Assembly: GCA_964476185.1 (NCBI GenBank) | Contig: CAYYZO010000004.1 | Span: 17,025-81,024 of the forward strand | DNA from: an uncultured Myxococcales bacterium | GTDB lineage: Bacteria > Desulfobacterota > Binatia > UBA1149 > CAITLU01 | DNA length: 64,000 nt | Direction: 5' to 3' | In this document: positions 4,804 through 64,000 of the stretch, in pieces | How the letters are laid out: each line of letters starts with the position of its first letter | Position numbering within the stretch: the stretch's first letter is position 1 | Position numbers and translations under genes: made by a program | Notes under the pieces: model-generated | What the model was told of the DNA's origin: nothing | The model's database searches: none | What the model saw: the letters and a program-made list of their open reading frames with translations, nothing else

Positions 4804-5059
4804 GGGGATCAGCGGGTCTCCCTGCGGTGCGCCCTCCGCGTACGGGCGAGGACGCGAGCGATCGGGTCGTCGCCGCGCCTGGAGCAGTGCTTGCCGCGCC
4901 TCGACACTCGGATCCGTCGCTCGGGCACGGAGTCTGGCGTTCCCGCCCTGCAGACGGAAGCTGGAACGCCGATTCGGCCGGTGCGGTGGCCAGACCCGGG
5001 ACGCAGGGCTAGGGTCGGCGATGCGCCAGCGTCGGCGCCACCCATCTGGAGGAACCGCC

Positions 5060-6946: not shown

Positions 6947-7241
6947 TCGTTCCTCGTCCATCCCCGGCGAAGCGCCGGTGGTCCGCAGTCCGCAAAGTTC
7001 CGTCCGGGCGGAGGACGGCAGCCGCGCGCTCAGCGCCGGTGTCGCCCGGACTCGTTCCGAAGCGTTGGATTCCCGCGCTGCCGCCCTCGTCTTCGCGACA
7101 TTTCCAACCAGAGCGGGATGGGCTTCCAACGAGGAAGTGGGTGGCTGTCGCCTTTTTCGCGTGTCAGGATGTCCGCGTCACTTGGTCGGCGACGGCGCGT
7201 TTTCACGCGCCGCATCCGCCTCACAGGGGGAGATTCTCACG

Positions 7242-16870: not shown

Positions 16871-17305
16871 TCACTGGATCGGGATCTTCTTCGCGCCGAC
16901 CTTCTCCGGCGCTTTCATCGTGACCTCGAGCACGCCGTCCTTGCAGCCGGCCCTGATGCTGTCGGTGTCCACGTCCCAGGGAAGCTGCACGGTGCGTTCG
17001 AACGCGCCGTACGAGACTTCGCGGTAGACACGGCCGCCCTTGTCTTCCTCGGTGCGGCTCTTGCGTTCTCCGCGGATCGTCAGGCGGTCGCCCTCGACCT
17101 GGATGTCGAGGTCGGCGGGGTCGATGCCCGGGACATCGACGCGGACGACGAGTTCGCCGTTGCGCAGGAACGACTCCAGCGGGGGAACCCAGCGGCCGGT
17201 GCTGACGCCCGGCAGCCAGTCGTTGCCGAAAAAGCGACCGATCAGGTCGTCGAACTCGCGATGCAGCGGCGAAAGGTCGGGAGTTCGGGTCGTCAAAGCT
17301 CTCAT
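16871..17305 (-). CDS. Hsp20/alpha-crystallin small heat-shock protein
   Basis: GGAGG RBS; VRVDVPGID, LTIRGER, EVSYGAFERTVQLP, DGVLEVTM. Confidence 0.93.
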   Translation of the reverse strand: MRALTTRTPDLSPLHREFDDLIGRFFGNDWLPGVSTGRWVPPLESFLRNGELVVRVDVPGIDPADLDIQVEGDRLTIRGERKSRTEEDKGGRVYREVSYGAFERTVQLPWDVDTDSIRAGCKDGVLEVTMKAPEKVGAKKIPIQ

Positions 17306-43447: not shown

Positions 43448-43484
43448 TTGACAACCCAAAGTGCGTAGTGCTACTAGGCACTAT
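43448..43484 (+). promoter_or_regulatory. Sigma70-type promoter with overlapping palindromic operator
   Basis: Perfect TTGACA at 43448; TAGTGC-TACTAG-GCACTA inverted repeat at 43466-43483. Confidence 0.6.
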
Positions 43485-43506
43485 CCGTTCTTGCCGGGAG
43501 CCGACC

Positions 43507-44616
43507 ATGGGACTCGCGATCTCTTCCTTCGCCCGATCGATCTTCTCGCCGGCCGCTGCCGCCCCGCAGCGGCGCGCGCCGAGCCGCCGCTGGGCCCGCG
43601 GCGCCGCCCGGCCCGAGATGCTGCGCCTCGTCGTCGCCGAGGTGATCGTCGAGTCGCCGAGCACGCGGACCTTCGTGTTCGAGGACCGCGACCTGCGCTA
43701 CCGCGCGGGACAGCACCTGACGGTCGTGGCCGGGATCGGAGGCCGCACGGTCCGCCGCTGCTACTCGTTCTCGAGCTCGCCGTCGGCGGGCTCGCGTCCG
43801 GCGATCACCGTGAAGAGGATCGATGGCGGGACGATGTCCGGCTGGCTGCACGACAACCTCCGCGCCGGCGACGAACTGCGCGCGATGCCGCCGGCCGGCG
43901 AGTTCTCGATCGAGCCGGACCCGTCGCGCTCGCGGCGCGTCGGGATGATCGCCGGAGGCGTGGGCATCACCCCGCTGCTCAGCATGGCGGAGACGCTGCT
44001 GCGCGAGGAACCCGGCACGCAGGTCACGATGCTGTACGGCAGCCGCTGCCGCGACGAAGTGATCTTCCACGACCGGCTTCTCGCGCTCTCGCGCGAGTTC
44101 GGCGGACGCCTGGTCCTCGAACTCGTCGTGGAACTGGGCGACACGTCGTGGGACGGCCTCGTCGGACGCGTCGACGGCGACGCCGTTTCGCGGGTGGCCG
44201 GGACGCACGAAGCGGACGATTGGTACGTCTGCGGACCGCAGCCGATGATGGACGGGGCCGTCGCGGCACTGGCGCAGGCTGGTGTCGCGCCCGAGCGCGT
44301 CCGCGTCGAGCGCTTCGAGTACGCCGTGCCGTCCTCGGCGGACATCCCGACCTCTCCGGCCGCGCTGGTCTTCCAGCACAGCGGGAAGAAGGTCATCGCC
44401 CGCGCGGGTTCGACGATCCTCGAAGCGGCCGAGCAGGCCGGCGTCGCGCTCCCGTCGAGTTGCCGCATGGGCGGCTGCGGCGCCTGCAAGGTGAAGGTGG
44501 AGGGCAAGGTCGTCGCGGCCGAGCCGAACTGCCTGAGCGAGCGCGAACGGTCGGAAGGCTGGGCGCTCGCGTGCTGTTCGTACGGCGACGGGCGCGTCGT
44601 CGTGCGCGATTTCTGA
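43507..44616 (+). CDS. FAD/NAD(P)H ferredoxin reductase with C-terminal 2Fe-2S domain (PaaE/KshB-type)
   Basis: RCYSFSS, IAGGVGITP, YVCGP, ERF, SSCRMGGCGAC...LACC. Confidence 0.93.
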   Translation: MGLAISSFARSIFSPAAAAPQRRAPSRRWARGAARPEMLRLVVAEVIVESPSTRTFVFEDRDLRYRAGQHLTVVAGIGGRTVRRCYSFSSSPSAGSRPAITVKRIDGGTMSGWLHDNLRAGDELRAMPPAGEFSIEPDPSRSRRVGMIAGGVGITPLLSMAETLLREEPGTQVTMLYGSRCRDEVIFHDRLLALSREFGGRLVLELVVELGDTSWDGLVGRVDGDAVSRVAGTHEADDWYVCGPQPMMDGAVAALAQAGVAPERVRVERFEYAVPSSADIPTSPAALVFQHSGKKVIARAGSTILEAAEQAGVALPSSCRMGGCGACKVKVEGKVVAAEPNCLSERERSEGWALACCSYGDGRVVVRDF

Positions 44617-44671
44617 CCGGCCCGCCGGCCGGACCCGACCGAACACCGAATCCTCCAGGGAGTACCCGACG

Positions 44672-45844
<1,173 letters not shown>

Positions 45845-49350: not shown

Positions 49351-49467
49351 GGTGTCCGCCGAGTCTAGCCGCACTCCCGCTCCCATGCCCACCCGCGGTG
49401 ACGCGGCGGGAGGGAAGGAGTTACGGTCAGGACGCAGGGAAGGGCGCCGGCGCGAGGCGCCGGGGCG

Positions 49468-50445
49468 TCATTTCGCCTTCCACTTGTAGTAGAGGGGCGG
49501 AATCGCCTGCAGGGGCCCGAGCGGGCTCATCTGCGCGTGACGCAGGTCGGACTCGATGCGGTCGCAGTGCCGCAGGACCGGGCGCAGGTCGTCGATGCGG
49601 GACGCGATGCGGCGCCAGTCGTCCCAGAGCGCCTCGTCGTCGAACCGGGCCTCGTCGTTCGCGAGCCGGAAGAGCCAGCGGAACGCGTCGCGGGCGAGGA
49701 CGTTCAGGTTCGGCGTGCGGTCGAGGTCCTGGATGTCGAACTTGCTGTGGCGGATGCCGGGCTTGAGGTACTGGGTGCGGTAGATCTCGATCTCCCGCCG
49801 GACGTTCTCGTCGACCGGGAGGCCGAGGCCGCGCGCCATGCGCTCGAGCTCGTGCGCCGGGTTCGCCATCACGTTGTCGTAGTCGACGAACACGCAGGTC
49901 TCGCCGCGCACGCGCTCGAAGTACGGGACGACGTTCGTCAGCCACTCGAGGTCGCTCTTCTCCTGCGTGCCGCGGTGCGGCTCCAGGCGCGCGCGGGAGC
50001 GCGCGACGCTGAGCGGGTTCCGCACGGCGAACACGTAGCGCGGCTCGACGCCGCAACGCTGGAACACGCGTTCGAAGAAGGGGAGGAAGCGGGAGGTGCG
50101 CGCGTACTTGTAGCCCCACAGCGGCGAGTTGCCGAAGCGGCGCCGGATCATCGCGACGCAGTCGTCCTCGATCTTCCTGATGACCGGAAGGTCGTACTCT
50201 TCCGGCTCGATGAGCCGGACGCTGTCGGCGCGGATCCCGAGCGTGCGCTTCAGGCGCCGGCTGATCCTCAGGAAATCGTTGTCCTCGAAGAACCCGGTGG
50301 GGTTCTTGCCGCTTCCGGGACGCAGGTTGTCGCCGAGGTCGATGCCGATCGCCTGCATCCCGCGCGTGATCGCACTGGTGCCGCTGCGTCCTACACCGAG
50401 GATGGTCACCATGACCCAGGGCTTCTTCGCGGCTGGTTCGCTCAT
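49468..50445 (-). CDS. Sulfotransferase family protein
   Basis: ILGVGRSGTSAI (5'-PSB), GFFED, WGYK, VRNPLSVARS (3'-PB). Confidence 0.85.
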   Translation of the reverse strand: MSEPAAKKPWVMVTILGVGRSGTSAITRGMQAIGIDLGDNLRPGSGKNPTGFFEDNDFLRISRRLKRTLGIRADSVRLIEPEEYDLPVIRKIEDDCVAMIRRRFGNSPLWGYKYARTSRFLPFFERVFQRCGVEPRYVFAVRNPLSVARSRARLEPHRGTQEKSDLEWLTNVVPYFERVRGETCVFVDYDNVMANPAHELERMARGLGLPVDENVRREIEIYRTQYLKPGIRHSKFDIQDLDRTPNLNVLARDAFRWLFRLANDEARFDDEALWDDWRRIASRIDDLRPVLRHCDRIESDLRHAQMSPLGPLQAIPPLYYKWKAK

Positions 50446-50459
50446 CGTGGTCGGCCTGC

Positions 50460-51551
50460 CTATTGGCGATGTTCGTGCCGGAGGTCAAACAGGGCGCGAA
50501 CGCGCGCGACGGTGCGCTCGAGGTCGTCGAGGGGCTCGCGATGCCGGGGCGCCGGATCGCCGAAGCGGTGCGCGAGCCCGCGCCGGCGCATCTCGGCGAA
50601 GTACGCGTCGAAATCGCGGGCCGGCTTGAACAGTCCGAGCTCGACGCCCTTGCTCCAGAGCCACGACGGTCGCGCGCGCCGCGCCGCGTGCCCGTTCTTC
50701 GCTCCTTTCCTCGGCCACTCGAACACGGCCGCGGGTTTCCCGGTCGCGCTCGCCTCGACGAGGATCGAAGCGCTGTCGATCGTCACGACGAAGTCGTCGG
50801 CGAGCGCGAGAAACCCCTTGTACGGGTTGTTCGCGGCGTCGTCGCGCTTCCATCGGTACACGACCGACGGCGCGTCGACGGCCGCGGCGAGCGCCTCGGC
50901 GGCCTCCGGCGGCGTGCGGGGGCTGGTGGAGACGAGCAGCGAGCCGCCGCGTTCCTTCGCCATGCGCGAGGCTTCCCGGCCGAGCCGCGCCGCCGTGTCG
51001 GGGTCGAGCTCGTACGCGGAACTGCTGCCGCCGACGAGGACCGCCGTCCACGGCCGCGGAAGGTGCTCCAGGCGCGGGCTCCAGGTCCTCGCCGCCGCTT
51101 CGAGGGCGGCTTCGTCGATGCGGTTCAGCACGCCGGTCACGTGCAGGACGTTGCCGCGCTCGGGAAGCCGGAACTGCGGCATCGTCACGACGAGGTCGAA
51201 GCGCTCGAGCGGGGCCTGCGCGTGCAGCAGGTGCACGAGGCGCGTGCGCCCGCCGGACCGTTTTCGGATCCACTGCGCGATCGGCGCCGAGCGGCGCGAC
51301 GCCGCGATCACGAGGTCGGGCCACGGCGGCTCGAGCGGCGACGAGCGCCGCCGGTCGAGCGAGATCGCCGAGGAGTCGAGCAGCAGGTTCGGCAGGTGGT
51401 TCAGCGCGTTGTGCCGGAGCTGCTTGATCTCGTACGGCCAGCCGAGCGCGTCCGCGAGGCTCTGCATCTGGCCGTTCCCGCCGACGCCCTTGCCGAACAG
51501 GACCCACACGCGCGGCGGCGGCGGGGACGAGGGGGCCGTCGCCGTGCCCAC
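50460..51551 (-). CDS. ELM1/GtrOC1-family putative glycosyltransferase
   Basis: PPWPDLVIAA, AVLVGG, LLVSTSPRTP, NPYKGFLALAD.FVVTIDSASI..EA.ATGKP. Confidence 0.85.
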   Translation of the reverse strand: MGTATAPSSPPPPRVWVLFGKGVGGNGQMQSLADALGWPYEIKQLRHNALNHLPNLLLDSSAISLDRRRSSPLEPPWPDLVIAASRRSAPIAQWIRKRSGGRTRLVHLLHAQAPLERFDLVVTMPQFRLPERGNVLHVTGVLNRIDEAALEAAARTWSPRLEHLPRPWTAVLVGGSSSAYELDPDTAARLGREASRMAKERGGSLLVSTSPRTPPEAAEALAAAVDAPSVVYRWKRDDAANNPYKGFLALADDFVVTIDSASILVEASATGKPAAVFEWPRKGAKNGHAARRARPSWLWSKGVELGLFKPARDFDAYFAEMRRRGLAHRFGDPAPRHREPLDDLERTVARVRALFDLRHEHRQ

Positions 51552-54092
51552 TCAGCCGCTCTTCGCGCGGCGCGGCTCTTCCGGGATGCGGCGGTCGTCC
51601 CCGATCCCGAGCAGCGCGCGCACCCGCTCGGCCACGACTTCGGCCTCGTTGAGCGGGGCGTGCGGCGCGAGGTCGAGCGTGCCGTCGAACATCCTCGCGT
51701 GGCCGCCGGCGACCAGGCCCTGGTGATAGGCCTCGAGGCTGCGGCTCGGGTGCACGATGCCGCGCTCGATCAGCCGCGCGCACAGGTATTCGCGGCCCTG
51801 CTGGGGCCGGAACGTGCCCTTGCCCTTGCGCGGGCGCGAGAACGCCACGCTCGTGACGAAGTCGACGAAGCGCTGGCCGAGCGTCGGCGCCTTCTTGCGC
51901 AGCGGGTAGATGTAAACGGGCTTCCCGGCCGCGCAGGCCTCGGCGAGCATCGACTCGCTCTCGCCGGTGACGACGAGAGCGTCGGCGCCGGCGATGTACG
52001 CGAGGAACGGGTTCTCCTTGCGGTCGGCGCTCCAGCGGTGCACCTCGCCGACCGGCTGGCCGCCGGCGCGAAGGCTCTGTTCCATCAACGTGATCGCGCT
52101 CGCCGGCGTGCGGCGGCTCGTGACGATGACCACGCTGCCGCCGTGCTTGCGGGCGAGCGCCGCCACGTCGTCGCCGAGACGGCGTGCGGTGGTGTCGTCG
52201 AGCTCGTACTGCACGCAGTCGCCGCCGACGAGCACGACGATGCGGGGCGAGGCCTTGCCGGTGAACAGGTCCGGGAACTTCGCGGCCGCCTCGGCCAGCC
52301 GCTGCGGCGTGACCTGGCAGAGCGGCGCGCTCAGCGCGATGCGGCGCTCGTGCGGCGGGTACTTCACGTAGGAACACGTCGCGACGAGGTCGAAGTTCGT
52401 CGCGACGTCGCCGCCCTTGCGCCCCATCGCGATGACCGACGTCCTTCCTTCGCTCCGGTCCGCGATCCAGCGCGCGACCGGGCCCGTGGCCCAGCCGGTC
52501 GAGATCACGAGGTCCGGCCACGGCGCCCGAAGCTCGCCCGCGCGCCGGCCGGAAGGATCGATCGCGAGCGGTCCGACCAGCCGGTCCGTGACCTTCGACC
52601 ACCACGGGAACCCGACGTCCTTGATCTCGTACGGCCAGCCGAGCGTGTCGGCGAGCCCGATCGACTGCGTCGTGTGGCCGGGCTTCGGGTCGGCCAGGAT
52701 CCAGACCTTCGGCGGGGCGTCGTCGAGGCGCTTGCCGCCCTCGCGCCAGTCCACGACCTCGGCGCCGAGCACGGTGCGCCGCCGCACGCCGAGGCGCCAG
52801 CGAACGTCGGGCTGGTTGCGCGAGGCCGCCTCCATCTGCTTGCGCCACCACGCGAAGCCGCGCGGCTGCACGCTGATGCTGCTGCCGTCGGCGAGCCGCA
52901 CGGTGCGCGGCACGTCGTCGACGGCGACGAACGCCGCCTTGCGCGCCCGGTACATCAGCTGGTCGAGGACCCACGGAATGTCCTCGTTCGACAGCAACTC
53001 GAGCCCGGACGTCGAAACGACCGCGTCGAACGGGCCGATCGGCACGTCCATGCCGGTCGCGCCGGTCGCGGTCGGGTCGAAGGCCGTCAGCGTGGCGCCG
53101 GGGTACTTGCCGACGCGGCTTTCGATGGCTTCGTTGCGGGCGTCGGCGAGCGTGAACTCGAGGATGCTGCGCGCGCCGGCCAGCGCGAGCAGTTCGCCGA
53201 GGCCGGACAGCGGCGCGGGCGGCGGCGGGGTCGAGAGCGGGGCCGTGCGGCCGTCCTCGCCGCGCATGCCGCGGATGCGCCGCACGAACCCGGTGTACAG
53301 GGTGTCCTCGGTCAGGAAGTCGTAGGCGCAGTACTCGCGCTGGTCGGCCTCCTTTTCCATGTCGTACCAGATGTGCGAGACCGGTCCCGCCATGTAGACG
53401 AACACCTCGGGGAACGGGTGCCACGGCTGCTCGTGGATCGTCGTGTAGTGGAGGCACTTGGAGTAGCCGTCCACGTAGTCGAAGTCGCGCGCGTGCCAGC
53501 AGGCCTCGAGCTTGCCCCACTCGTGCCTGGACATCTTCTCGATCTGCTTGCGGGGAGTGTGGCTGACGACCTCGTAGGTCCAGATGTCCTTCATCTTGTC
53601 GCAGTCGATGAGCATGACCGCGGTGTCGTCGGGCGAGATCGCGAGGAAGCCCTTGCCGCCCATGTCGGCGTCGAAGAGCTCGGCCGGATCCGACAGGAAG
53701 ATCTGGTCGACGTCGTTGTAGATCGCGCGGCCCGTGCCGGCCCAGTTCGCGATCGCGAAGCGGTAGTTCGTGAACCCGGTCAGCCACCAGCGGCGATCGT
53801 AGCCGCGGACGTCCTTCATCAGGTGGATCTCGTAGACCCTCGACGGGTCGCGGAACTTGTCCACGGAATAGATGAAGAGCCGCTCGGCGCGGTACTGGCC
53901 GGCTTCGGTGCCGAGGTAGATGCGGACCGGCGGCTTGGTCGAGGGCGTGGCGCCGCCGCGGGCGGGAAGGACGACCTTCTGGGGAAGGTCCCGGACGCCG
54001 GCCGTGGGCAACCGTGCCGGATTCGGGAAGATCCTGTCCTTGACGCGTCTGGTGGTGAGAAACGGCATGAAAGCCTCCGCGTGCGCTGACAT
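51552..54092 (-). CDS. Multidomain protein: GT8-like domain, methyltransferase-like domain and ELM1/GtrOC1 domain
   Basis: N-terminal GFTNYRF, IYNDVDQIF, HYTT..QPW; middle FDAVVST..LE...WVL...WW; C-terminal WILADPKPGHTTQSIGLA, TSRRTP, NPFLAYIAGAD..VVTGESESM. Confidence 0.78.
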   Translation of the reverse strand: MSAHAEAFMPFLTTRRVKDRIFPNPARLPTAGVRDLPQKVVLPARGGATPSTKPPVRIYLGTEAGQYRAERLFIYSVDKFRDPSRVYEIHLMKDVRGYDRRWWLTGFTNYRFAIANWAGTGRAIYNDVDQIFLSDPAELFDADMGGKGFLAISPDDTAVMLIDCDKMKDIWTYEVVSHTPRKQIEKMSRHEWGKLEACWHARDFDYVDGYSKCLHYTTIHEQPWHPFPEVFVYMAGPVSHIWYDMEKEADQREYCAYDFLTEDTLYTGFVRRIRGMRGEDGRTAPLSTPPPPAPLSGLGELLALAGARSILEFTLADARNEAIESRVGKYPGATLTAFDPTATGATGMDVPIGPFDAVVSTSGLELLSNEDIPWVLDQLMYRARKAAFVAVDDVPRTVRLADGSSISVQPRGFAWWRKQMEAASRNQPDVRWRLGVRRRTVLGAEVVDWREGGKRLDDAPPKVWILADPKPGHTTQSIGLADTLGWPYEIKDVGFPWWSKVTDRLVGPLAIDPSGRRAGELRAPWPDLVISTGWATGPVARWIADRSEGRTSVIAMGRKGGDVATNFDLVATCSYVKYPPHERRIALSAPLCQVTPQRLAEAAAKFPDLFTGKASPRIVVLVGGDCVQYELDDTTARRLGDDVAALARKHGGSVVIVTSRRTPASAITLMEQSLRAGGQPVGEVHRWSADRKENPFLAYIAGADALVVTGESESMLAEACAAGKPVYIYPLRKKAPTLGQRFVDFVTSVAFSRPRKGKGTFRPQQGREYLCARLIERGIVHPSRSLEAYHQGLVAGGHARMFDGTLDLAPHAPLNEAEVVAERVRALLGIGDDRRIPEEPRRAKSG

Positions 54093-54229: not shown

Positions 54230-56014
54230 TCAGGCGAGGTCGGTCGTGCCGTCGCCCGCAGCGCCGGCGACGTCGGCGGATGCAGCGGGATCGCCGGCCG
54301 CGTCGGGATGGTCGGCGAACCGCTCGTTTCCTTCGAGCAGGCGCACCCGCCCGTCGCTCAGGCGATAGACGCGGTCGGCCACCTGGAGAAGCCCCGGCTG
54401 ATGGGAGATCGCGAGGATCGTCGTGCGGCCGCGCAGCGAGCGGACGGTCTCGTAGATGCCGGCCTCGCTGGCCGGGTCCAGGGCAGCCGTCGCTTCGTCG
54501 AGGATCAGCAGGCTCGGGCGGTGCACCAGCGCACGTGCGATCGCGATGCGCTGCCGCTGGCCGCCGGACAAGCGCGCGCCGCGCTCGCCGAGCGGTGTGT
54601 CGAGGCCCTGTTCGAGCTCGCGCACGAACCCGGTGGCGCCGGCCGCTTCGAGGGCTTCCTCCACGTCCGTGCGCGTGAGGTCCGGGTCCCCGAGCGTCAC
54701 GTTCGTGAGGAGATCCTCGTGCAGCAGCAGCATCTCCTGCGGCACGTAGCCGACGCGACGGCGCCAGCCAGCGATGTCGATCTCCGACATCGGGACGTCG
54801 TCGAGGAACACCTGGCCGCGCCTCGGGTGCACCAGGCCGAGCGCGAGGTCCGCGATGGTCGTCTTGCCGGCGCCCGACGGGCCGATGATGGCCGTGACTT
54901 CGCCGGCCGGCAGGAAGAGGTCGGCTCCACGGAGGATCGGCCGCTCGTCGTAGGAGAAGTCGACGTCGCGGATCGAGATGCCGCGCTCGAAGACGGGATC
55001 GCGCGTCCCGCTCACCGGCTCGTTCTCGCGCGCCGACTCGTCGATGGTCTTCTGCAGCGACCAGAACGCGCTCTCGCAGGCCGCCATCGCCTGGTACTGC
55101 TTCTGCGATTTCTGCAGGCTGAACAGCGCGCGCGCGAACACGAGCGACAGCATGATGACGTTGTCGACGGCGAGCTCCCAGAACGTCGTCGCGGCGTAGA
55201 GGCCGCCGGTCAGCGACATCACGAGCAGCGGCTCCTGCAGCGCCCGGACCGCTTCCTTGCTCAGCACCTGCCTCTGCAGCGCGCGGTTGAGGCTCTCGGT
55301 CTCGTGCTCGAGCAGCGGCGCGACGAGCGGTTCGCGTCCCATGGCCTTGAGCGGCTTGACGGCATAGAGCACGTCGGTCATGCGCGCGATCAGCGTGCGC
55401 ATGAGGTCGGTCTGCTTGACGCCGGCGCGCTTGGTCCGCCGGACGAGGCCCGAGAGCGCGCCGACCGTGCCCAGCCCGACGAAGGATGCCGCGAGCGTCG
55501 TCTGCCACGAGACCGCCGCGGCGATGCCGACGTAGAGGATCGTCTGGATCAGCTGCGAGACCAGCGTCGTGCCGTACAGGTACGCTTCCGAAGCGCGCGA
55601 CGCCTCGGTGGCGAACGCGTTGGCGAGCATGCCGACCGGCTGGCGCACGTAGTAGAGCCAGCGGGCCGACAGCAGCGCGCGCAGCAGCGCCAGCCGCAGA
55701 TCCGTCGCCACGTGCGCGACGGTGTAGCCGACCTGCCGCTGGGCGAGCAGCATCAGCGTCGCCTTGAGGATGCTGCCGAGCACGATCATCACGAGCAGCA
55801 CCCCGAGCGTGGGCTCGAGGCCGACGCTCGCGAGCCCCGAGCGCAGCGACTGCTCGAGGCCGGAGGGCTCGCCTTTGGAGCCGGTCACCATGCCGAGCAG
55901 AGGGAGAAGGCTGGACAGTCCGATCCCCTCGGCCGCCGCGGCCAGGGTCAGACAGATCAGCATGATGAAGGTGCGCGACGGATAGCGTCGGGCGAGGACG
56001 AGGAGGAGACGCAT
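54230..56014 (-). CDS. ABC exporter, fused permease-ATPase (MsbA/PglK-like)
   Basis: Six-TM N-terminus; GPSGAGKTT, LSGGQRQRIAIARAL, ILDEAT. Confidence 0.93.
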   Translation of the reverse strand: MRLLLVLARRYPSRTFIMLICLTLAAAAEGIGLSSLLPLLGMVTGSKGEPSGLEQSLRSGLASVGLEPTLGVLLVMIVLGSILKATLMLLAQRQVGYTVAHVATDLRLALLRALLSARWLYYVRQPVGMLANAFATEASRASEAYLYGTTLVSQLIQTILYVGIAAAVSWQTTLAASFVGLGTVGALSGLVRRTKRAGVKQTDLMRTLIARMTDVLYAVKPLKAMGREPLVAPLLEHETESLNRALQRQVLSKEAVRALQEPLLVMSLTGGLYAATTFWELAVDNVIMLSLVFARALFSLQKSQKQYQAMAACESAFWSLQKTIDESARENEPVSGTRDPVFERGISIRDVDFSYDERPILRGADLFLPAGEVTAIIGPSGAGKTTIADLALGLVHPRRGQVFLDDVPMSEIDIAGWRRRVGYVPQEMLLLHEDLLTNVTLGDPDLTRTDVEEALEAAGATGFVRELEQGLDTPLGERGARLSGGQRQRIAIARALVHRPSLLILDEATAALDPASEAGIYETVRSLRGRTTILAISHQPGLLQVADRVYRLSDGRVRLLEGNERFADHPDAAGDPAASADVAGAAGDGTTDLA

Positions 56015-56171: not shown

Positions 56172-56966
56172 ATGCTCAAGGCGCTCGTGCTTGCAGGTCG
56201 TCGCAGCAGCGGCGACGCGGTGGCGGACAGTTCCGGATTGCGCCACCGGGCGCTGCTGCCGATTGCCGGCGTGCCGATGCTCGAGCGGGTCGTCGACGCG
56301 ATCGAGAAGAGCGGCGTCGCTTCGTCGGTGACGGTCAGCAGCGACGACCCGCAGATCGTCCACGCTACGCCGCGGCTCGCCTCCCTGGCCTCCGAGGGCC
56401 GCGGCTTCCTGTTCTTCCATCGCTCGGCGACGTCGCCGGCCGCGAGCGTCGCGGATTTCCTCGCCGGCGTCGGCGACGGGGAGCCGGTGTTCGCGACCAC
56501 GGCCGACCATCCGCTGCTGACGCCCGAGATCGTCCGGTGGTTCGTCGAGCGCGCGTCCGCGTCGCCGGCCGATGTCGTCGTCGGCATGGTGCCCGCCACC
56601 GTCTACCGGCGCCGCTTCCCCGACCAGCCTCGCACGTTCCTGCGCCTGCGCGGCGAGCAGTACTCGGGAGCGAACCTGTTCCTGCTGCGGACCGCCGCCG
56701 CGATCGCCGTCCCGCGCTTCTGGATCCGCGCGGAGTCCCACCGCAAGACGCCGTGGAAGCTCGCGCGCGTCTTCGGGATCTCGAACCTCTTGTCGTTCCT
56801 GCTGCGCCGCTTCGACCTCGAGGCCGCGCTTCGGCGCGCGTCGGACGTGATCGGCGCGCGCGTCGAAGCCCTCGAACTGCCGTTCGCCGAAGCCGCGCTC
56901 GACGTCGACAAGGAAGCGGACCGCCTTGCCGTCGAGGCCGTGTTCGCCGAGCGATCCGGCGCCTGA
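56172..56966 (+). CDS. MobA-like nucleotidyltransferase (NTP_transf_3; CpgD-like family)
   Basis: ALVLAG, ALLPIAGVPML, TTADHPLL, RTFL...YSGANLF, RK.PWK, AALDVDK..D. Confidence 0.82.
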   Translation: MLKALVLAGRRSSGDAVADSSGLRHRALLPIAGVPMLERVVDAIEKSGVASSVTVSSDDPQIVHATPRLASLASEGRGFLFFHRSATSPAASVADFLAGVGDGEPVFATTADHPLLTPEIVRWFVERASASPADVVVGMVPATVYRRRFPDQPRTFLRLRGEQYSGANLFLLRTAAAIAVPRFWIRAESHRKTPWKLARVFGISNLLSFLLRRFDLEAALRRASDVIGARVEALELPFAEAALDVDKEADRLAVEAVFAERSGA

Positions 56967-57141: not shown

Positions 57142-57906
57142 ATGAAGTACGTCTTCGACGCCGGGGGACGCGCGGAACTCGCACGTCTCGCACGGTCGAA
57201 CACGCTGGTCGCGTTCGATTTCGACGGCACGCTCGCGCCGATCGTCGCGGACCGCGACCTCGCGCAGATGCGGCCCGAGACGCGCGGGCTGCTCGCCCGC
57301 GTGAATGCGCAGTATCCCTGTGCGGTCATCTCCGGGCGCGGACTCGACGACGTGGCGTCGCGCCTCGAGGCCACGGGTGTCCGTCACGTCGTCGGCAACC
57401 ACGGCATGGAGCCCGGTTCGAGGCTCGGCGAGTTCGAGCGTGCGGCCGAGCTCGGTTTCGAGGAAGCCCGCCGACGGCTGGCCGGTCACGAGGGACTGGA
57501 CTTCGAGCACAAGCGCTACTCGTTCGCCGTCCACTACCGGCGGTCGCGCGACCGCGATGCGGCGCGGCGGGCGATCGACGAGACGATCGCGTCGCTGTCC
57601 GTCGCGACGCGCGTGGTTCCCGGGCACCTCGTCGTGAACGTCATGCCGCACGGCGCGCCGGACAAGGGCGATGCGCTGGACCACCTTCGAGTCGAGCTGG
57701 CCTGCGAGCTCGCGCTGTTCGTCGGCGACGACATCACCGACGAGGACGTCTTCCGGCACGTCGGCGACGGGCGCGTCGTCGGCGTCCGCGTGGGCAGGAG
57801 CGACGAGTCGTCGGCGACCTGGTTCGTTCGCGACCAGGACGAAGTCGACGAATTGCTGCGGGTCCTCGTCGCGTTGCGGGAACCCCGGGTTCCGGAAGGC
57901 TCCTGA
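57142..57906 (+). CDS. otsB: Trehalose-6-phosphate phosphatase-like HAD IIB phosphatase
   Basis: FDFDGTLAPIV, ISGR, GNHG.E, EHK.YS..VHYR, DKG, GDDITDE. Confidence 0.82.
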   Translation: MKYVFDAGGRAELARLARSNTLVAFDFDGTLAPIVADRDLAQMRPETRGLLARVNAQYPCAVISGRGLDDVASRLEATGVRHVVGNHGMEPGSRLGEFERAAELGFEEARRRLAGHEGLDFEHKRYSFAVHYRRSRDRDAARRAIDETIASLSVATRVVPGHLVVNVMPHGAPDKGDALDHLRVELACELALFVGDDITDEDVFRHVGDGRVVGVRVGRSDESSATWFVRDQDEVDELLRVLVALREPRVPEGS

Positions 57907-58076: not shown

Positions 58077-59099
58077 GTGCGCATCGGAGTCCTCAGCAAC
58101 CTGCGCGCCGGCGGTAGCGGGGTTCGTGCGGCCAAGGTCGTCGAGCATCTCGCGCGCTATCCCGAGATCGTCCACGTCGAGACCAGCGAGGAGAACGGCG
58201 CGCCGGGTGCGGTGCGCCAGCTCGCCGACGCCGGAGTCGACGTCCTCGTCGTCAACGGCGGCGACGGCACGCTGCAGCGCACGCTGACCGAGGTGATGTG
58301 CGCGACTTCCCCGTTCCGCCGCCCGGGGGACACGCGGGAACTGCCGGGCGAATCCGGCCTTCCGATGATCGTGCCGCTGCGCAGCGGCCGGACGAACATG
58401 ACGGCCTACGACATCGGCACCCCGCGTGATGCGCGCGTCGCCGTCGACCGCCTTGTCGCGCGCGCCAGGAGCGGACGCCTCCAGGAGTCGGTCGTTCGTC
58501 GCGCCGCGCTTCGCATGAAGCTCGAGCCCGACGGAGTCGACCACTGGGGGACTTTCTTCGGCGTCGGCGTGATCTACCGCGGCACGCTGCTCACGCACCG
58601 TATCTTCCCGAGGGGCAGGGCGCAGGGCGTGTTCGGCAGCACGGTCGTCACGGCCGGCCTGATCGCACGCGCGCTGACGGGCCGCGCGCCGGCCGCCCGC
58701 GACGGGGCGGAGGACCCGCTGACCATCGACCCGATGACCGTCCGGCTCGACGGGGAACTGCTCGCGGCCGGCGAGTTCCAGCTGCTGATGGCGACCACGC
58801 TGCAGCGCCTGTTCGCGGGAATCCGGCCGTTCTGGGGCAGGGGGCCGGGAGGGATCCGCTTCACCGCCCTCGGCCCGGGCTGCCTGCGCCACCCGAAGCA
58901 GATCGCACGGGTGCTGCGCGGGCTCGTGCCCAAGGGCAGCGGCGAAGACGACGCCCTCTTCGAGAGCCGCAACGTCGAGAAGGTCGAGTTGTCGCTCGAT
59001 TGCGGGATCTCGCTCGACGGCGAGATGTTCGTCCCGCAGAAGGGCCGCCAGGCGACGCTGCTGGCCGACCACCGCGTTCGCTTCGTGACGACGCGCTGA
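58077..59099 (+). CDS. Diacylglycerol/ceramide kinase-family lipid kinase (CpgB-like)
   Basis: GVLSN, VNGGDGTLQ, PLRSGRTNMTAYDIG, LDGE motifs. Confidence 0.85.
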   Translation: MRIGVLSNLRAGGSGVRAAKVVEHLARYPEIVHVETSEENGAPGAVRQLADAGVDVLVVNGGDGTLQRTLTEVMCATSPFRRPGDTRELPGESGLPMIVPLRSGRTNMTAYDIGTPRDARVAVDRLVARARSGRLQESVVRRAALRMKLEPDGVDHWGTFFGVGVIYRGTLLTHRIFPRGRAQGVFGSTVVTAGLIARALTGRAPAARDGAEDPLTIDPMTVRLDGELLAAGEFQLLMATTLQRLFAGIRPFWGRGPGGIRFTALGPGCLRHPKQIARVLRGLVPKGSGEDDALFESRNVEKVELSLDCGISLDGEMFVPQKGRQATLLADHRVRFVTTR

Positions 59100-59113
59100 G
59101 CTACGTTGGAGCC

Positions 59114-60073
59114 GTGAACCGCGATCCGCGCACCCAGCTCGCCGCGCTGTTCGAGCGCGAGCACCGTGCCGACGTGCCGCCCGAGGCGCTCGCCCTGGTC
59201 GCCGAGATCCGACGCCGGCACGAGGGCGCGGTCGCGGCGGTGCTGTTCTACGGGTCGTGCCTGCGCCGCTCGTACGTCGCCGGCGGAGTGCTCGACTTCT
59301 ACGCGATCGTCGACTCGTATCGCGGGGCCTACCGTTCCCGCCTGCTGGCGCTGTCGAACTCGCTGTTGCCGCCGAACGTCTACTACGTCGAGCTGCCGTT
59401 CGAGGGCGAGACGCTGCGGATGAAGTACAACGTGATCTCGCGCGAGGACTTCGCCGCGGCCTGCCGCCCCGAGAGCCTGCACCCGATCATCTGGGCGCGA
59501 TTCTGCCAGCCTTCGGCCGTGCCGTACGCGCGCGACGACGAGGTCCGCTCTGCCCTCGCGGCCGACTGCGCCGAGGCCGCGGTGACGATGGTCAGCCGCA
59601 TGCTCGCCCTCCACCCGGAGTCGGCGACCGTCGAGGATCTCTGGCAGGCGGGGTTCGGGACGACGTACACGACCGAGATGCGCGTCGAGACGCCGGAGAC
59701 GATCCGCTCGGTCTACGAGGCCGCGCCCGAGCGCTACTCCGCGGTGTCGGCGCTCGCCGTCGAAGTGCTCGTGCGGCGCGGACTCGTGCAGGGTCGAATC
59801 GACGGGCCCCAGGTCCAGGTCCGGATGGCGGAGCCGGCGAGGCGCTCGATCGTCTCGTCGTGGAAGCGCCGGCTCCCGGTGGCCAAGGGGCTGTACGTGG
59901 TGCGGCTCGTCAAGTCCGCGCTCACGTTCGGCGACTGGCTGCCGTACGCGCTCTGGAAGCTGCAGCGTCACAGCGGCGTCCGGATCGAGGTCACCGACCG
60001 GCAGCGACGCCATCCGCTGATCTTCGGCTGGCCCGTCATCCTGCAGTTGATCCGGGGCAAGACGCTGCGATGA
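59114..60073 (+). CDS. Tam41/Mmp37-like phosphatidate cytidylyltransferase homolog (CpgC-like)
   Basis: AVLFYGSC...LDFYAIVD, PPNVYY, KYNVIS, WARFCQP parallel the Tam41 YGSG / DFIFAV / KYGVVS / GRLQKP motifs. Confidence 0.72.
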   Translation: MNRDPRTQLAALFEREHRADVPPEALALVAEIRRRHEGAVAAVLFYGSCLRRSYVAGGVLDFYAIVDSYRGAYRSRLLALSNSLLPPNVYYVELPFEGETLRMKYNVISREDFAAACRPESLHPIIWARFCQPSAVPYARDDEVRSALAADCAEAAVTMVSRMLALHPESATVEDLWQAGFGTTYTTEMRVETPETIRSVYEAAPERYSAVSALAVEVLVRRGLVQGRIDGPQVQVRMAEPARRSIVSSWKRRLPVAKGLYVVRLVKSALTFGDWLPYALWKLQRHSGVRIEVTDRQRRHPLIFGWPVILQLIRGKTLR

Positions 60074-60224: not shown

Positions 60225-61307
60225 ATGGTCACTCCTGAAGGAGGGACGGTCGCCGCCGAGGGGGCGGGGGCCGAGGTGGATCAGAGTCCTGCCGCACTGC
60301 GGCGACGCTACACCTCGTTGTTCCGCCCCAAGCCCTGGCTCTACTACGCCGACATGCTGGCGGCGGCCGTGCTCGGCTGGTCGGCCTTTGCGCTGGCCGT
60401 GCACACGGAGCGCTTCACGGCTGCCTGGGGCGCGGCCGTCTTCGTGGCCGTCTTCGCCCTGTACCGGGCCATCCTGTTCATCCACGAGATCTCGCACCTG
60501 CAGCGGCGCGCCGTGCCGGGGTTCGAGGTCGTCTGGTCGCTGGTGGTCGGCTTCCCGCTGCTGGTCCCGAGCCTGATGTACAAGGGGTCGCACGGCGAGC
60601 ACCATCGCCGCCAGATCTTCGGGACGGAGAAGGATCCCGAGTACGCGCCGATCGGCCAGTGGAGCAAGGTCCGCGTCGCCGCCTCGATCCTGCCGCTGCT
60701 CGTCGTCCCGTTCCTGCTCGTGCTGCGGTGGGCCATCCTCGGGCCGCTCTCCTACCTGTTCCCGCCGCTTCGCCGCTTCGTCGTCGGCTACATGTCGACG
60801 CTCGTGATCAACCCGACCTACCAGCGGCGCATGCCCGAGGGGCGCATGGCCCGGCGCTGGCTGGTGGAGGAAGCCTGCACGGCGCTGGTGTGCTGGACGA
60901 TCGTGCTCGCGATGGCGACCGGCGCGATCGGGACGTCGTGGCTGGTCGAGTGGTTCCTGATCTCGAGCTTCATCCTCGCGTTCAACCACGTCCGGACGCT
61001 GGTCGCTCACCGCTACCACAACGACGGGACGCCGATGGACCTGCTCGAGCAGTACCGCGACTCGGTGAACCTTTCGGGCGGCCACTGGGTCGATGCGGTT
61101 CTGGCGCCCGTGGGGCTGCGCTATCACGCGCTGCACCACCTGCTGCCGACGGTGCCGTACCACAGCCTCGGCGCGATCCACCGCCGCATGCTGAGCGAAC
61201 TCCCGCCGCAGACGCCGTACCACGTCGCTGAGCACCGCACGCTGCTGCACGCGGTGCGCTCCCTGTTCGGCGACCGTGCGTTCTCGCACTTCCCGTCGCG
61301 CCGCTGA
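60225..61307 (+). CDS. Membrane fatty acid/sphingolipid desaturase (or hydroxylase)
   Basis: Three His boxes: HEISH, HGEHH, HALHH; TM helices. Confidence 0.9.
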   Translation: MVTPEGGTVAAEGAGAEVDQSPAALRRRYTSLFRPKPWLYYADMLAAAVLGWSAFALAVHTERFTAAWGAAVFVAVFALYRAILFIHEISHLQRRAVPGFEVVWSLVVGFPLLVPSLMYKGSHGEHHRRQIFGTEKDPEYAPIGQWSKVRVAASILPLLVVPFLLVLRWAILGPLSYLFPPLRRFVVGYMSTLVINPTYQRRMPEGRMARRWLVEEACTALVCWTIVLAMATGAIGTSWLVEWFLISSFILAFNHVRTLVAHRYHNDGTPMDLLEQYRDSVNLSGGHWVDAVLAPVGLRYHALHHLLPTVPYHSLGAIHRRMLSELPPQTPYHVAEHRTLLHAVRSLFGDRAFSHFPSRR

Positions 61308-61340: not shown

Positions 61341-62414
61341 TCAGCTTCGCAGCGTCAGCATTCCGCCGACGAGGACGAACACGGCGTTCGCCGCCCAGGC
61401 CGCGACGATCGGCGGAAGCGTGCCGGCGTGTCCGGCCGAGACGGTCAGCGCCTGCATCAACCAGTACAGGAAGCAGACGGCCATGCCGGTGCCGATGTGC
61501 TGCGCGGTCCCGGCGCGGCGCGACCCGCGCAGCGCGAGCGGCAGCCCGAGCAGCACCGTGATGATGCCGGACAGCGGCAGGGCGAACTTGAACTGCAGGT
61601 CCGTCTGCAGCCCGGCCGGGTCGAATCCCTTGGCCTGCAGCATGCGGATGCGCTGGGACAGCTGCCGGATGCTGAACTCGTCGGAGCGCGGCGCCTTCTT
61701 GCGGAACTCGGCCGGCGTCCCGCCGAGGTCCACCTCGAGGTCGCCGAGCGGCCCGTACAGGAGGCCGCCGTTCTCGTCGAAGTTGCGCACGGTGCCCCCT
61801 TCGTACTCCCAGCGGTCGCCCTCCCATCTGGCGACGGGGATCTCGACGAGACGGGTGAGCTGGAAGCGCTCGTCGATCCCGTGCAGCGTGATGCCCTCGA
61901 GGACGTTGTGGGTCGCGTCGAAGTAGTCGATGTTGAGGAACCCTTCGGGAACCTGGACCCACAGCGCGGTCGCGTCGAGCATGCCGCGGCTCGCGAGTCC
62001 CTTGATGTCGATGTCCTTGATGGCCCGGGCGCGCGCCGCCGTCGGCGGGACGACGACTTCGTTGAACAGCATCGCGACGGCGCTGATCGCGAGGCTCGAG
62101 ACGAGCAGCGGCCGGGCGATGCGCGCGACGCTGACGCCGCACGCGTGCAGCGCGACGACCTCGTTCGTCCGCACCAGCGAGCCGATCCCGAGCAGCACGG
62201 CGAGCAGCGACGCGGCCGGGTAGACCTCGACGAGCCACTTCGGCGTCTTCAGCGCGAAATAGGTGGCCACGAGCCGGGGGCTCGAGTCGTACGACGCGAG
62301 GTCGCCGATGCGGCCGAAGAACTCGACGACGAGAAGCAGGCCGATCGCGCCCGCGAGGCACAGCACGAACGTGCGCAGGTAGAGCCCGACGAGCTGGCGC
62401 GCGAGCAGGCTCAT
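61341..62414 (-). CDS. lptG: LptG-family permease
   Basis: YFALKTP, LVRTNEVVALHACGVS, FNEVVVP, periplasmic beta domain, LPPIVAAW; ATGA overlap with lptF. Confidence 0.9.
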   Translation of the reverse strand: MSLLARQLVGLYLRTFVLCLAGAIGLLLVVEFFGRIGDLASYDSSPRLVATYFALKTPKWLVEVYPAASLLAVLLGIGSLVRTNEVVALHACGVSVARIARPLLVSSLAISAVAMLFNEVVVPPTAARARAIKDIDIKGLASRGMLDATALWVQVPEGFLNIDYFDATHNVLEGITLHGIDERFQLTRLVEIPVARWEGDRWEYEGGTVRNFDENGGLLYGPLGDLEVDLGGTPAEFRKKAPRSDEFSIRQLSQRIRMLQAKGFDPAGLQTDLQFKFALPLSGIITVLLGLPLALRGSRRAGTAQHIGTGMAVCFLYWLMQALTVSAGHAGTLPPIVAAWAANAVFVLVGGMLTLRS

Positions 62415-63553
62415 GCGCCGCGCCCCCTCGCGAACGCGAACAGCGGCGGGCGTTCCTCGACGGCGCGTCGGAACAGCACGACGGCGAGCAGCGCGAGCAG
62501 GACGTCCGGCAGCCACATCGCGACGGGAACCGGCAGCAGGCGCTCGCGCGCGATCGTCACGGCGCCCGTCAGCATCAGGTAGTAGACGAGCACCACGAGG
62601 GTGCTGAGCAGCATCCCGCGCGACTTCACTCCGCGGCGGCCGACCGCGCCGAGCGGGACCCCGACGAAGGGCAGCAGCAGGGCCGCCGCGGGCAGCACGA
62701 GCTTGCGGTGCAGTTCGATCGTCTCCTCGATCGCCGGCTCGCCGCGAGCGAGAGCCTCGCGCCGCGCCTCGAGGAGCCGCGCGAGCGACATCGCGGACGG
62801 GCCGCCGCTGGCCATCAGGTCCACGCCTGTCTCGTCGGCCATGTCGAGGTTCAGCTCGAGGGAATCGAAATCGGTCTTGTCGTGGTACTTCCCCGAGGCG
62901 TGGTAGGTGAGCAGGCTGCCGTCGTGGAGCTTCAGGTAGGCCTTGCGCGCGTCCCCGTTCGACTCGACGAGGCCGTCGCTCGCGAAGATGGTCTTGCGCC
63001 CGTACTTCTCGCGCTCCTCGGCGAGCATCACGTTGCGCATCCTGCCGGTGTCCGCGTCGAGCTCGTCCACGAACAGGATGACGCCGCCCATCCACGTGTT
63101 GAAGACGCCGGCCCGCAACGACGCGGTCAAGCGGGTGCGGGCCATGTCGTACGTGGTCTCCTCGATGCCGCGGTTCGCCCACGGCCTGGCCCAGACCCCG
63201 AGCACGACGCTGACCGTCGCGACGACGACGCTGAACGTGACCAGCGGGCGAGAGAGCTGGCGCAGGTTGATGCCGGCCGCGCGGATCGCGAGCAACTCGC
63301 CCTCGGAGCCCAGGCGCGCGAACACGACGACGACGGCCAGCAGCGCGGCCATCGGAAGGGCGATCTCCAGGTACGACGGAACGATGAAGACGGCGAGTGC
63401 GCCGACCAGCCGCGCCGGGACGCCACGCGCGAACGCGAGGTCCACGAACTCGACCATGCGAAGCACGAACAGGATCGAGACCGCCAGTCCGACCGCGGCC
63501 ACGAAGGCCTGCGCGACCTCGCGCAGCAGGTAGCGCTGGAGCGTGCGTCCCAC
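62411..63553 (-). CDS. lptF: LptF-family permease
   Basis: LQRYLLREV, RLGSEGELLAIRAAGI, RPWAN, GVFN, ELHRK, MWLPD. Confidence 0.9.
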   Translation of the reverse strand: MGRTLQRYLLREVAQAFVAAVGLAVSILFVLRMVEFVDLAFARGVPARLVGALAVFIVPSYLEIALPMAALLAVVVVFARLGSEGELLAIRAAGINLRQLSRPLVTFSVVVATVSVVLGVWARPWANRGIEETTYDMARTRLTASLRAGVFNTWMGGVILFVDELDADTGRMRNVMLAEEREKYGRKTIFASDGLVESNGDARKAYLKLHDGSLLTYHASGKYHDKTDFDSLELNLDMADETGVDLMASGGPSAMSLARLLEARREALARGEPAIEETIELHRKLVLPAAALLLPFVGVPLGAVGRRGVKSRGMLLSTLVVLVYYLMLTGAVTIARERLLPVPVAMWLPDVLLALLAVVLFRRAVEERPPLFAFARGRGA

Positions 63554-63563
63554 CGCCCGCTCC

Positions 63564-64000
63564 CTACTGGTCCACGGGGATCTTTTCGTACACGGCGAGC
63601 CCGTCGTTGGTCCGGCCGAAGAGCTCGATGTAGCGCACCGTCGGGGTCAGGAACCCTTCTTCCGCGAAGACGAACACCTTGTCGAGGTAGGCCTGCTTGC
63701 CGTCGATCGTGAGGAAGGTCTCGGCCTTGCACTTGCCGTCGACCGGGGCGGTGCGGACGACGATCTGGCGGTCCGGCAGCGCGCGCAGGCGCACCTCGAT
63801 GCGCCCGTCGCTTTCGATCTGCTGTTTCTGGAAGCCGTACGCCACCTGCTGGAAGAACGAGAGCGGCCGGGTCTCGACGGGGTCCTCCTCGCGCCGGAGC
63901 CAGTAGTTGTAGATCGGCTCGGGCGGGACCGGGCGGCACTGCTCGTCGACGCGCACGCCGTAGTGGACCTGGTTGCGGTTCTTGTTGCGGTCGATGTGGA
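63564..64000 (-). CDS. DUF4833-like protein (C-terminal part; runs off the right edge)
   Basis: HIDRNKNRNQVHYGV...EPIYNYW...QQVAYG...YIELFGR. Confidence 0.6.
   Translation of the reverse strand, partial: HIDRNKNRNQVHYGVRVDEQCRPVPPEPIYNYWLRREEDPVETRPLSFFQQVAYGFQKQQIESDGRIEVRLRALPDRQIVVRTAPVDGKCKAETFLTIDGKQAYLDKVFVFAEEGFLTPTVRYIELFGRTNDGLAVYEKIPVDQ

Follow-up and report, generated by a model that had tools for sequence, protein, structure and literature searches.

A Tam41-like member of the CpgC family, a candidate nucleotidyltransferase encoded beside a lipid kinase in an uncultivated Binatia-like bacterium

The 64,000-nucleotide stretch of DNA analysed here (positions 17,025 to 81,024 of contig CAYYZO010000004.1, hereafter the window) carries, at 59114-60073 of its forward strand, a gene for a 319-residue protein located directly behind a lipid kinase gene. 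The homology of this protein to Tam41, the mitochondrial cytidine diphosphate (CDP)-diacylglycerol synthase, is genuine but remote, and the protein belongs to a sister family instead of being a Tam41 orthologue. Judged from synteny, the family is that of CpgC, and the gene is thus a new member of a known, biochemically unsettled family, found in a variant cluster and in an unusual phylum. The reading that we favour, with a probability of roughly one half, is that the product is a peripheral-membrane CpgC-family nucleotidyltransferase working in a pathway in which a lipid would be first phosphorylated by the kinase, then loaded with cytidine monophosphate (CMP) and finally furnished with a head group; as part of this reading, the CpgC family would be a divergent sister of Tam41 that keeps the Tam41 fold together with an unusual active site built on a single aspartate. 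The fold, the remote homology, the synteny-based family assignment, the coupling to the kinase and the features of the membrane tail are established in this analysis. An earlier reading of the DNA made without database searches (the sequence-only reading) had already proposed a bacterial homologue of Tam41 that would activate, with cytidine triphosphate (CTP), the product of the neighbouring kinase. The similarity to Tam41, the existence of bacterial Tam41 proteins and the hypothesis of a nucleoside diphosphate (NDP)-ceramide have all been published, so that the idea is sound, not new, and the order of kinase followed by CTP activation is a reasonable proposal that fits the literature.

The open reading frame is confirmed as a real gene. 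Its start is the GTG at 59114, with GGAG at 59108-59111 just before it, and the N-termini of more than 40 homologues fit this codon and not the upstream TTG at 59000, which was rejected as a start since translation from it would, in addition, run into the kinase gene. The stop codon of the kinase gene (59097-59099) is separated from the GTG by 14 nucleotides, both genes being on the same strand. The translation bears out the five motifs singled out by the sequence-only reading, in the order then given: FYGSC (residues 45-49), LDFYAIVD (60-67), PPNVYY (86-91), KYNVIS (104-109) and WARFCQP (127-133). Homologues, predicted models and Foldseek searches agree on a Tam41-fold protein made up of a nucleotidyltransferase domain (residues 1-140, with YGS at 46-48 and D61), a helical, winged-helix-like domain (141-239, with E188, R190 and E192) and a basic amphipathic C-terminal tail (240-319) with a net charge of +13.

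AlphaFold models of good confidence were obtained both for the complete protein (mean predicted local distance difference test, pLDDT, 88.3; predicted template-modelling score, pTM, 0.86) and for residues 1-240 (pLDDT 96.0, pTM 0.92). When the full-length model was compared with the Protein Data Bank (PDB) by Foldseek, the top five matches were all Tam41 structures, from entries 6ig4 and 6ig2 (Schizosaccharomyces pombe Tam41) and 7ecd (a Firmicutes Tam41-CTP-Mg complex), with E-values of 1.8e-9 to 9.8e-9 and template-modelling (TM) scores of 0.45-0.56 over about 285 aligned columns. The next fold was the aminoglycoside nucleotidyltransferase ANT(4') (E 3e-5, TM 0.28-0.34). Residues 1-240 gave the same ranking, 6ig2 and 6ig4 leading (E 2.8e-9 to 1.5e-8, TMq 0.55-0.58) and ANT(4') following behind (E 5e-6, TM 0.37), and the lead of Tam41 over the next fold amounts to three to four orders of magnitude in E-value. 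The Foldseek comparison with Tam41 structures suggested by the sequence-only reading came out in favour of the homology; a Pfam search gave no match of the window protein to the family PF09139.

In sequence comparisons the relationship to Tam41 emerges only through intermediate members of the family and through profile-profile alignment. P0159, which clearly belongs to the family (E 7e-81 when compared with the family's profile), scores 34.3 bits against PF09139 (Tam41_Mmp37), the gathering cut-off of which is 24 bits, and matches S. pombe Tam41 (6ig2) in HMMER with an E-value of 3.7e-6; in this alignment its PNVFY, KYAVIS, WGRFAQP and LSYRAELR are paired with GVYYN, KYGVTS, AGRFQKP and LSYLGDIR, respectively. 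PF09139 matches were found in 6 of 59 representatives of the family (E<=0.01), and it was the sole Pfam family recurring among them. The motif set given for Tam41 by the sequence-only reading is borne out by fragments of the fungal protein, which carry GYGSGVF, M[LI]D[LF][IV]F, GVYYN, KYGV and AGRFQKP. A search with an S. pombe Tam41 fragment yielded seven such fragmentary fungal proteins, and when the family profile was compared by hhalign with Tam41 N-terminal fragments, the five motifs fell in register (E 6e-4), as the HMMER alignment of P0159 also indicates. It has to be added, as an observation on the method, that profile hidden Markov models built from two family alignments fail to find Tam41 among PDB sequences, whereas the lone member P0159 reaches it; family-wide averaging wipes out the residual Tam41 signal.

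Conservation was judged on the same 59 representatives, each 27-55% identical to the window protein. Residues Y46, G47, D61, P87, V89, K104, R129, Q132, E188, R190, E192, Y278 and K282 are invariant, and since invariant residues fall within the cores of the five motifs, these cores constitute the conserved core of the family. The hG[GS] element at residues 47-48 is followed, 12 residues on, by D61, with Y63 sitting where a second carboxylate would be; throughout the family D61 never varies, and an aromatic residue occupies position 63. Tam41 itself, according to one report, retains only one of the three acidic residues of nucleotidyltransferases and holds CTP by means of basic residues (PMC11646218), and a single catalytic aspartate accompanied by conserved lysine and arginine is likewise what the window protein presents.

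The resemblance extends to the overall layout. Tam41 has a positively charged, amphipathic membrane anchor at its C-terminus (PMC7018664), and the two proteins share the order of nucleotidyltransferase domain, winged-helix-like domain and basic amphipathic tail, as well as the order of the five motifs, both being peripheral proteins. In the window protein the amphipathic stretch, with the peak of the hydrophobic moment, lies at residues 261-281 of the tail, and no transmembrane segment was found, the maximum Kyte-Doolittle average over 19 residues being 1.26. The differences from Tam41 are also clear. The window protein fails PF09139, and its family carries motifs of its own, TELRxE and a C-terminal TFxxxxxYxxWKxxRHxG; moreover, Tam41 acts on phosphatidic acid and belongs to the synthesis of cardiolipin and phosphatidylglycerol, whereas the context of the present family is that of sphingolipids and the outer membrane, ceramide-1-phosphate (C1P) being the likely substrate of the window protein. 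CdsA (CTP_transf_1), the standard CDP-diacylglycerol synthase of bacteria, performs the type of reaction envisaged here, in which a lipid phosphate receives CMP from CTP, but has an unrelated fold and is a polytopic membrane protein, in contrast to the window protein, which lacks transmembrane segments and any CTP_transf_1 match.

The family assignment comes from gene neighbourhoods, which were counted in the best 80 of at least 547 species-representative genomes. Of the 74 loci whose upstream sequence reached far enough, 70 have a DAGK_cat kinase gene directly upstream and in the same orientation; a serine-palmitoyltransferase-type gene (spt) is present in 31 of 65 loci, in 24 directly downstream. 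In Alphaproteobacteria a CpgA-type gene and the kinase gene precede the CpgC-like gene, and spt, cerR and the acyl-ACP synthetase gene come after it. LptF/G homologues occur in 56 of the 80 loci, and an NTP_transf_3 gene like that of the window in 46. In a Sphingomonadales chromosome (L024), the order is LptG, LptF, DUF2141, DAGK_cat kinase and CpgC-like gene, followed on the opposite strand by spt, an epimerase-type reductase of the cerR type and an AMP-binding acyl-ACP synthetase. The locus of Pelagibius marinus begins with a GNAT gene of the ceramide-synthase type, NTP_transf_3, NTP_transferase, Metallophos, DUF2141, LptF and LptG, and continues with a CDP-alcohol phosphatidyltransferase (CpgA), the kinase, the CpgC-like gene and spt. 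In its genes and in their order this locus agrees with what has been published on the Caulobacter region CC_1152-CC_1165, in which CC_1152 is CpgD, CC_1153 a CofC-like nucleotidyltransferase, CC_1154 the ceramide synthase gene cerS, CC_1155/CC_1156 lptG2/lptF2, CC_1158 a phosphoesterase, CC_1159 CpgA (with a PgsA domain), CC_1160 the ceramide kinase CpgB, CC_1161 CpgC and CC_1162 spt (PMC11324152, PMC9393093, PMC12275187).

Compared along its whole length with the gene product at the CpgC position of the Sphingomonadales locus (L024:9965-10933), the window protein shows 38% identity (E 3e-66), and it is 38-42% identical to the products of the Sphingomonadales and Kiloniellaceae genes that are flanked by cpgB and spt; the window kinase, in turn, is 29% identical over its full length (E 6e-39) to the kinase at the Sphingomonadales cpgB position. 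Taking into account both the gene order and the 38% identity, the protein is assigned to the CpgC family (CC_1161/CCNA_01219). Like CpgC of Caulobacter, it is encoded directly after a CpgB-type DAGK_cat kinase, and it likewise shows no Pfam domain together with a likeness to CDP-diacylglycerol synthases, the Caulobacter protein having been reported to lack Pfam domains (PMC9393093) and to bear a CDP-diacylglycerol-synthase-like signature (PMC11324152). Two natural fusions, one of a DAGK_cat kinase with a CpgC-like domain (P0207, 662 residues) and the other of a MobA-like NTP_transf_3 domain with a CpgC-like domain (P0131, 594 residues), support a functional link between the kinase, nucleotidyltransferase and CpgC-like steps. 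A further apparent fusion of kinase and CpgC-like domain, P0227, resembles a frameshift read-through and was left out of the count.

The function of CpgC has been addressed in Caulobacter, where deletion of CCNA_01219, a gene described as encoding no conserved domains, abolishes ceramide phosphoglycerate (CPG) and CPG2 while ceramide phosphate remains (PMC9393093), and CpgC is therefore required for the conversion of C1P to CPG, an anionic sphingolipid of the outer membrane (PMC9393093, PMC11324152). The kinase encoded at the cpgB position is reported to be a ceramide kinase (PMC10331486). In 2024, the CDP-diacylglycerol-synthase-like domain of CpgC was noted and an NDP-ceramide intermediate was proposed (PMC11324152), although the mechanism leading from C1P to CPG was still called 'unidentified' in 2025-2026 (PMC12275187; bioRxiv 10.64898/2026.05.18.725363). 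The Tam41-like fold, the conserved active-site residues and the fusions described above would offer a concrete mechanism for this conversion, namely, the transfer of CMP to the lipid phosphate.

On the favoured reading, the process could run as follows. The CpgB-like kinase, whose gene is probably translationally coupled to that of the CpgC-like protein, would phosphorylate a lipid alcohol of the membrane, ceramide being the likeliest, to a lipid 1-phosphate. The CpgC-like enzyme, held at the inner membrane by its basic amphipathic tail, would then transfer CMP from CTP onto the lipid phosphate, with release of pyrophosphate, leading to the formation of a liponucleotide, CDP-ceramide. This step is proposed by analogy with Tam41, which converts phosphatidic acid and CTP to CDP-diacylglycerol. 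Later, a head group would displace CMP from the liponucleotide, and the ABC exporter encoded nearby could flip the resulting anionic phosphosphingolipid, which the LptF/G pair would carry to the outer membrane. That a cytidylyl group is transferred, that CTP supplies it, that this organism's enzyme acts on C1P and which head group is attached are here what we infer. The sequence-only reading had named CDP-ceramide as an example of the product, and this idea fares unevenly: the gene pair adjoins spt, cerR and an acyl-ACP synthetase gene in many genomes, and the window holds no ceramide synthesis gene.

Several observations weigh against this scheme. The structural agreement with Tam41 is modest (TM only about 0.5, root-mean-square deviation of 6-7 Å, 13-16% identity). 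The window protein has no Pfam match at all, PF09139 failing even at E<=10, and no NCBIfam match; a Pfam scan of its 40 closest relatives gave no match at a useful level, and neither phmmer nor the family profiles find Tam41 among PDB sequences. It is this absence of Pfam and NCBIfam matches that points to a sister family and not to an orthologue of Tam41, so that the homology proposed by the sequence-only reading holds as a remote one, on the strength of fold, P0159, motif register and domain layout, but does not extend to orthology. The hhalign probability is only 29%, owing to the tiny template. As regards CpgC, orthology is based on synteny and on the literature description, no Caulobacter sequence having appeared among the best 80 genome loci or the best 120 protein matches. 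None of spt, cerR, cerS, acp and an acyl-ACP synthetase gene is present within the 64-kb window, and the same genes are absent within 10 kb of the gene in its two closest relatives (L085 and L086), which makes ceramide production by this organism a presumption. The cluster contains neither a CDP-alcohol phosphotransferase nor any other obvious consumer of a CDP-lipid, and the term 'CDP-ceramide' was not found in the literature searched. Finally, no separate glycerate transferase is known in Caulobacter, where CpgB and CpgC appear to be enough for CPG (PMC11324152, PMC12275187), suggesting that cytidylyl transfer may be only a part of what CpgC does, or not its activity at all.

This last point is the starting place of the alternative that survives best, unlikely as we consider it, in which the protein would be a head-group transferase forming the phosphodiester on C1P directly, without release of CDP-ceramide. 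Its Tam41-like pocket could bind an acid or sugar that the NTP_transf_3 protein has activated with a nucleotide, or activation of the lipid phosphate and coupling could take place in one active site. Besides the apparent sufficiency of CpgB and CpgC in Caulobacter, the frequency of NTP_transf_3 genes in the loci and the fusion in P0131 fit such a role, and the invariant E188, R190 and E192, along with the strongly conserved C-terminal region, exceed what simple CMP transfer would need. Nevertheless, the transfer of an NDP-activated phospho-acid onto a lipid phosphate would create a pyrophosphate linkage, and CPG shows none; mutants of CC_1152 and CC_1153, which encode two soluble nucleotidyltransferases, still produce CPG (PMC11324152); and the nearest characterised enzymes all use CTP to load CMP onto a lipid phosphate.

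Somewhat less probable is that the protein is a genuine CDP-diacylglycerol synthase and its partner a diacylglycerol kinase, the pair recycling diacylglycerol through phosphatidic acid to CDP-diacylglycerol for the head groups of glycerophospholipids or glycolipids. Tam41 structures, including that of a bacterial Tam41 with CTP-Mg (7ecd), are after all the best fold matches, and Tam41 homologues with CDP-diacylglycerol synthase activity are known from Firmicutes and Proteobacteria, a bacterial Tam41 with this activity having been crystallised in 2022 (7ecd; Kimura 2022, as cited in PMC11646218). Some members of the family bear the UniRef name 'Phosphatidate cytidylyltransferase', diacylglycerol kinases belong among the DAGK_cat kinases, and the lack of ceramide synthesis genes in the window and in the flanks of the closest relatives would be as expected. 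The synteny with spt, cerR and acyl-ACP synthetase genes in many lineages argues otherwise, as do the ceramide kinase activity ascribed to the Caulobacter enzyme at the kinase position and the requirement of the Caulobacter CpgC for CPG, with C1P retained in the mutant; besides, the window protein fails PF09139, and the normal route to CDP-diacylglycerol in Gram-negative bacteria is CdsA.

Very improbable, finally, is a non-lipid nucleotidyltransferase similar to aminoglycoside or lincosamide resistance enzymes or to MNT/HalB-type defence proteins, for which the shared two-domain architecture, the lower Foldseek matches to ANT(4'), AadA, LinB and Hailong HalB (E 3e-5 to 1e-2) and a weak profile match to an MNT-like nucleotidyltransferase domain (E 0.05-0.6) can be adduced, but against which stand the TM scores of 0.23-0.38, compared with 0.47-0.58 for Tam41, E-values three to four orders worse, the missing second and third catalytic carboxylates, the invariably lipid- or envelope-related neighbourhood and a basic amphipathic tail that suggests a membrane substrate.

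Returning to the kinase and CMP-transfer scheme, a bolder and doubtful extension of it can be formulated. In this proposal the enzymes of the CpgC family would in general be C1P cytidylyltransferases making CDP-ceramide, and in the present bacterium the activated ceramide would be consumed by Elm1-domain (GT-B-like) proteins encoded in the same cluster, the product being a new anionic phospho(glyco)sphingolipid of the outer membrane exported by a dedicated ABC flippase and LptFG. The mitochondrial Tam41 might then plausibly derive from this bacterial family as well, which is abundant in Alphaproteobacteria. Were this so, the activated lipid of the window would be CDP-ceramide, a liponucleotide of which no description was found in the literature searched.

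The family is large. More than 1191 homologues of the window protein were retrieved from a word-indexed database, and an exhaustive profile search (E<=1e-3) returned 1515 clusters at 50% identity. The hosts, belonging to the at least 547 species-representative genomes mentioned above, include Nitrospirales, Desulfobacterales, Nitrosomonadaceae, Marinimicrobia, Calditrichota and Binatia-like lineages, so that the family extends well past the Caulobacterales and Sphingomonadales of the original reports. The DNA itself derives from metagenomes of bioreactors and sand, and the nearest named relatives are 'Candidatus Binatia' and similar metagenome-assembled genomes.

With regard to the cluster in which the gene resides, its type recurs in L001, L003, L085 and L086. 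Immediately upstream, the lipid kinase gene (58077-59099, forward strand), probably starting at GTG 58077, encodes a CpgB-like candidate ceramide kinase recognised by Pfam DAGK_cat (E 5e-9), and the lipid kinase that the sequence-only reading had placed directly before the Tam41-like gene is therefore confirmed. Downstream lies a gene for a membrane fatty-acid desaturase or hydroxylase (60225-61307, forward; Pfam FA_desaturase E 1.3e-28), kept in this position in L001, L003, L085 and L086; a DesA-family hydroxylase is known to act on Caulobacter sphingolipids (PMC11324152). On the reverse strand follow an LptG-like permease gene (61341-62414), detected by tblastn at 61344-62405 as a paralogue of the LptF-like gene, the LptF-like permease gene itself (62411-63553; Pfam LptF_LptG E 1.9e-73) and, directly after it, a DUF4833 gene (63564-63956), a pairing that is also seen in L085 and L086. 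In Caulobacter, the paralogues LptF2/G2 transport sphingolipids (bioRxiv 10.64898/2026.04.12.717747), and the Caulobacter cpg region has LptF/G paralogues and an ABC flippase, which are also found beside the window gene.

On the other side of the kinase, the forward-strand gene at 56172-56966 encodes a MobA/KdsB-like NTP transferase of the CC_1153 type (NTP_transf_3 E 5.5e-16, CTP_transf_3 E 1.4e-10). Among PDB entries it is matched best by the hypothetical protein TTHA0179 (2dpw), with KdsB next, and it is 44% identical to the product of the Pelagibius gene located between the GNAT ceramide synthase gene and the CpgD-type NTP_transferase gene. It was considered as a candidate for CpgD and rejected, since its Pfam type and position fit the CC_1153 type and the CpgD-type gene of Pelagibius is a separate NTP_transferase. 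The next gene, at 57142-57906 (forward), encodes a trehalose-phosphate-phosphatase-like HAD protein (Pfam Trehalose_PPase E 2e-23). In L085, the 78%-identical relative, an intact trehalase/OtsA/OtsB block occupies the same position (4126-8941), and the gene is absent from L001, L003 and L086; as the remnant of an otsAB/trehalase insertion missing in most related clusters, it was discarded as the phosphatase of the pathway and probably lies outside the pathway core.

The divergent, reverse-strand genes begin with that of a MsbA/HepA-like ABC exporter (54230-56014; Pfam ABC_membrane and ABC_tran), a candidate lipid flippase whose NCBIfam matches to HepA_fam and MsbA are under their cut-offs. Beyond it are the genes for an 846-residue protein with a C-terminal Elm1 domain (Mito_fiss_Elm1 E 1e-54) and a weak GT8-like region at its N-terminus (51552-54092), for an Elm1-domain protein (50460-51551; Pfam Mito_fiss_Elm1, PF06258, E 3.4e-65) and for a sulfotransferase-like protein (49468-50445). 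The exporter and the 846-residue protein are kept in L001, L003, L085 and L086, and the shorter Elm1-domain protein in L001, L003 and L086, Binatia-like relatives in which both Elm1 genes accompany the kinase and CpgC-like pair. A tblastn search with the window Elm1 protein gave a match in 4 of the 80 species loci (L047, L054, L066 and L083), and literature searches on bacterial Elm1-domain proteins and sphingolipids gave nothing relevant. The Elm1 proteins are candidate consumers of the activated lipid. Elm1 is, apart from this, the second family in the cluster named after a mitochondrial protein.

In comparison with Caulobacter, the window cluster lacks CpgA, a CpgD-type nucleotidyltransferase and Metallophos, in addition to the ceramide genes already mentioned, and has instead the two Elm1-domain genes, the sulfotransferase-like gene and the desaturase gene; its host, moreover, belongs to a Binatia-like uncultivated lineage and is not a proteobacterium. 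The head group made here probably differs from the diphosphoglycerate of Caulobacter. In the sister-clade loci L001 and L003 (50-53% identity), the same Elm1, ABC, NTP_transf_3, kinase and desaturase genes are accompanied by spt, which has been inserted, together with a candidate acyltransferase gene, between the CpgC-like gene and the desaturase gene, and this insertion argues that the cluster type serves sphingolipids.

The gene of about 310 codons that lies between the CpgC-like gene and spt in these two loci (L001 11009-11935 and L003 10995-11927, both on the reverse strand) shows only a faint or weak match to the 2-oxoacid_dh acyltransferase family and may encode a non-GNAT ceramide N-acyltransferase. 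Outside the cluster, the reverse-strand gene at 46891-49392 encodes an 833-residue protein in which a VTT/DedA membrane domain and an entire pyridine-nucleotide-disulfide oxidoreductase (Pyr_redox_2 and dimerisation domain) are fused. Farther upstream, at 43468-45844 on the forward strand, a gene of the ferredoxin-NAD(P) reductase type (with FAD_binding_6, NAD_binding_1 and Fer2) precedes one for an AurF/ribonucleotide-reductase-like di-iron protein, the latter with scores under the Pfam cut-offs, and a gene for a MerR-family regulator lies upstream.

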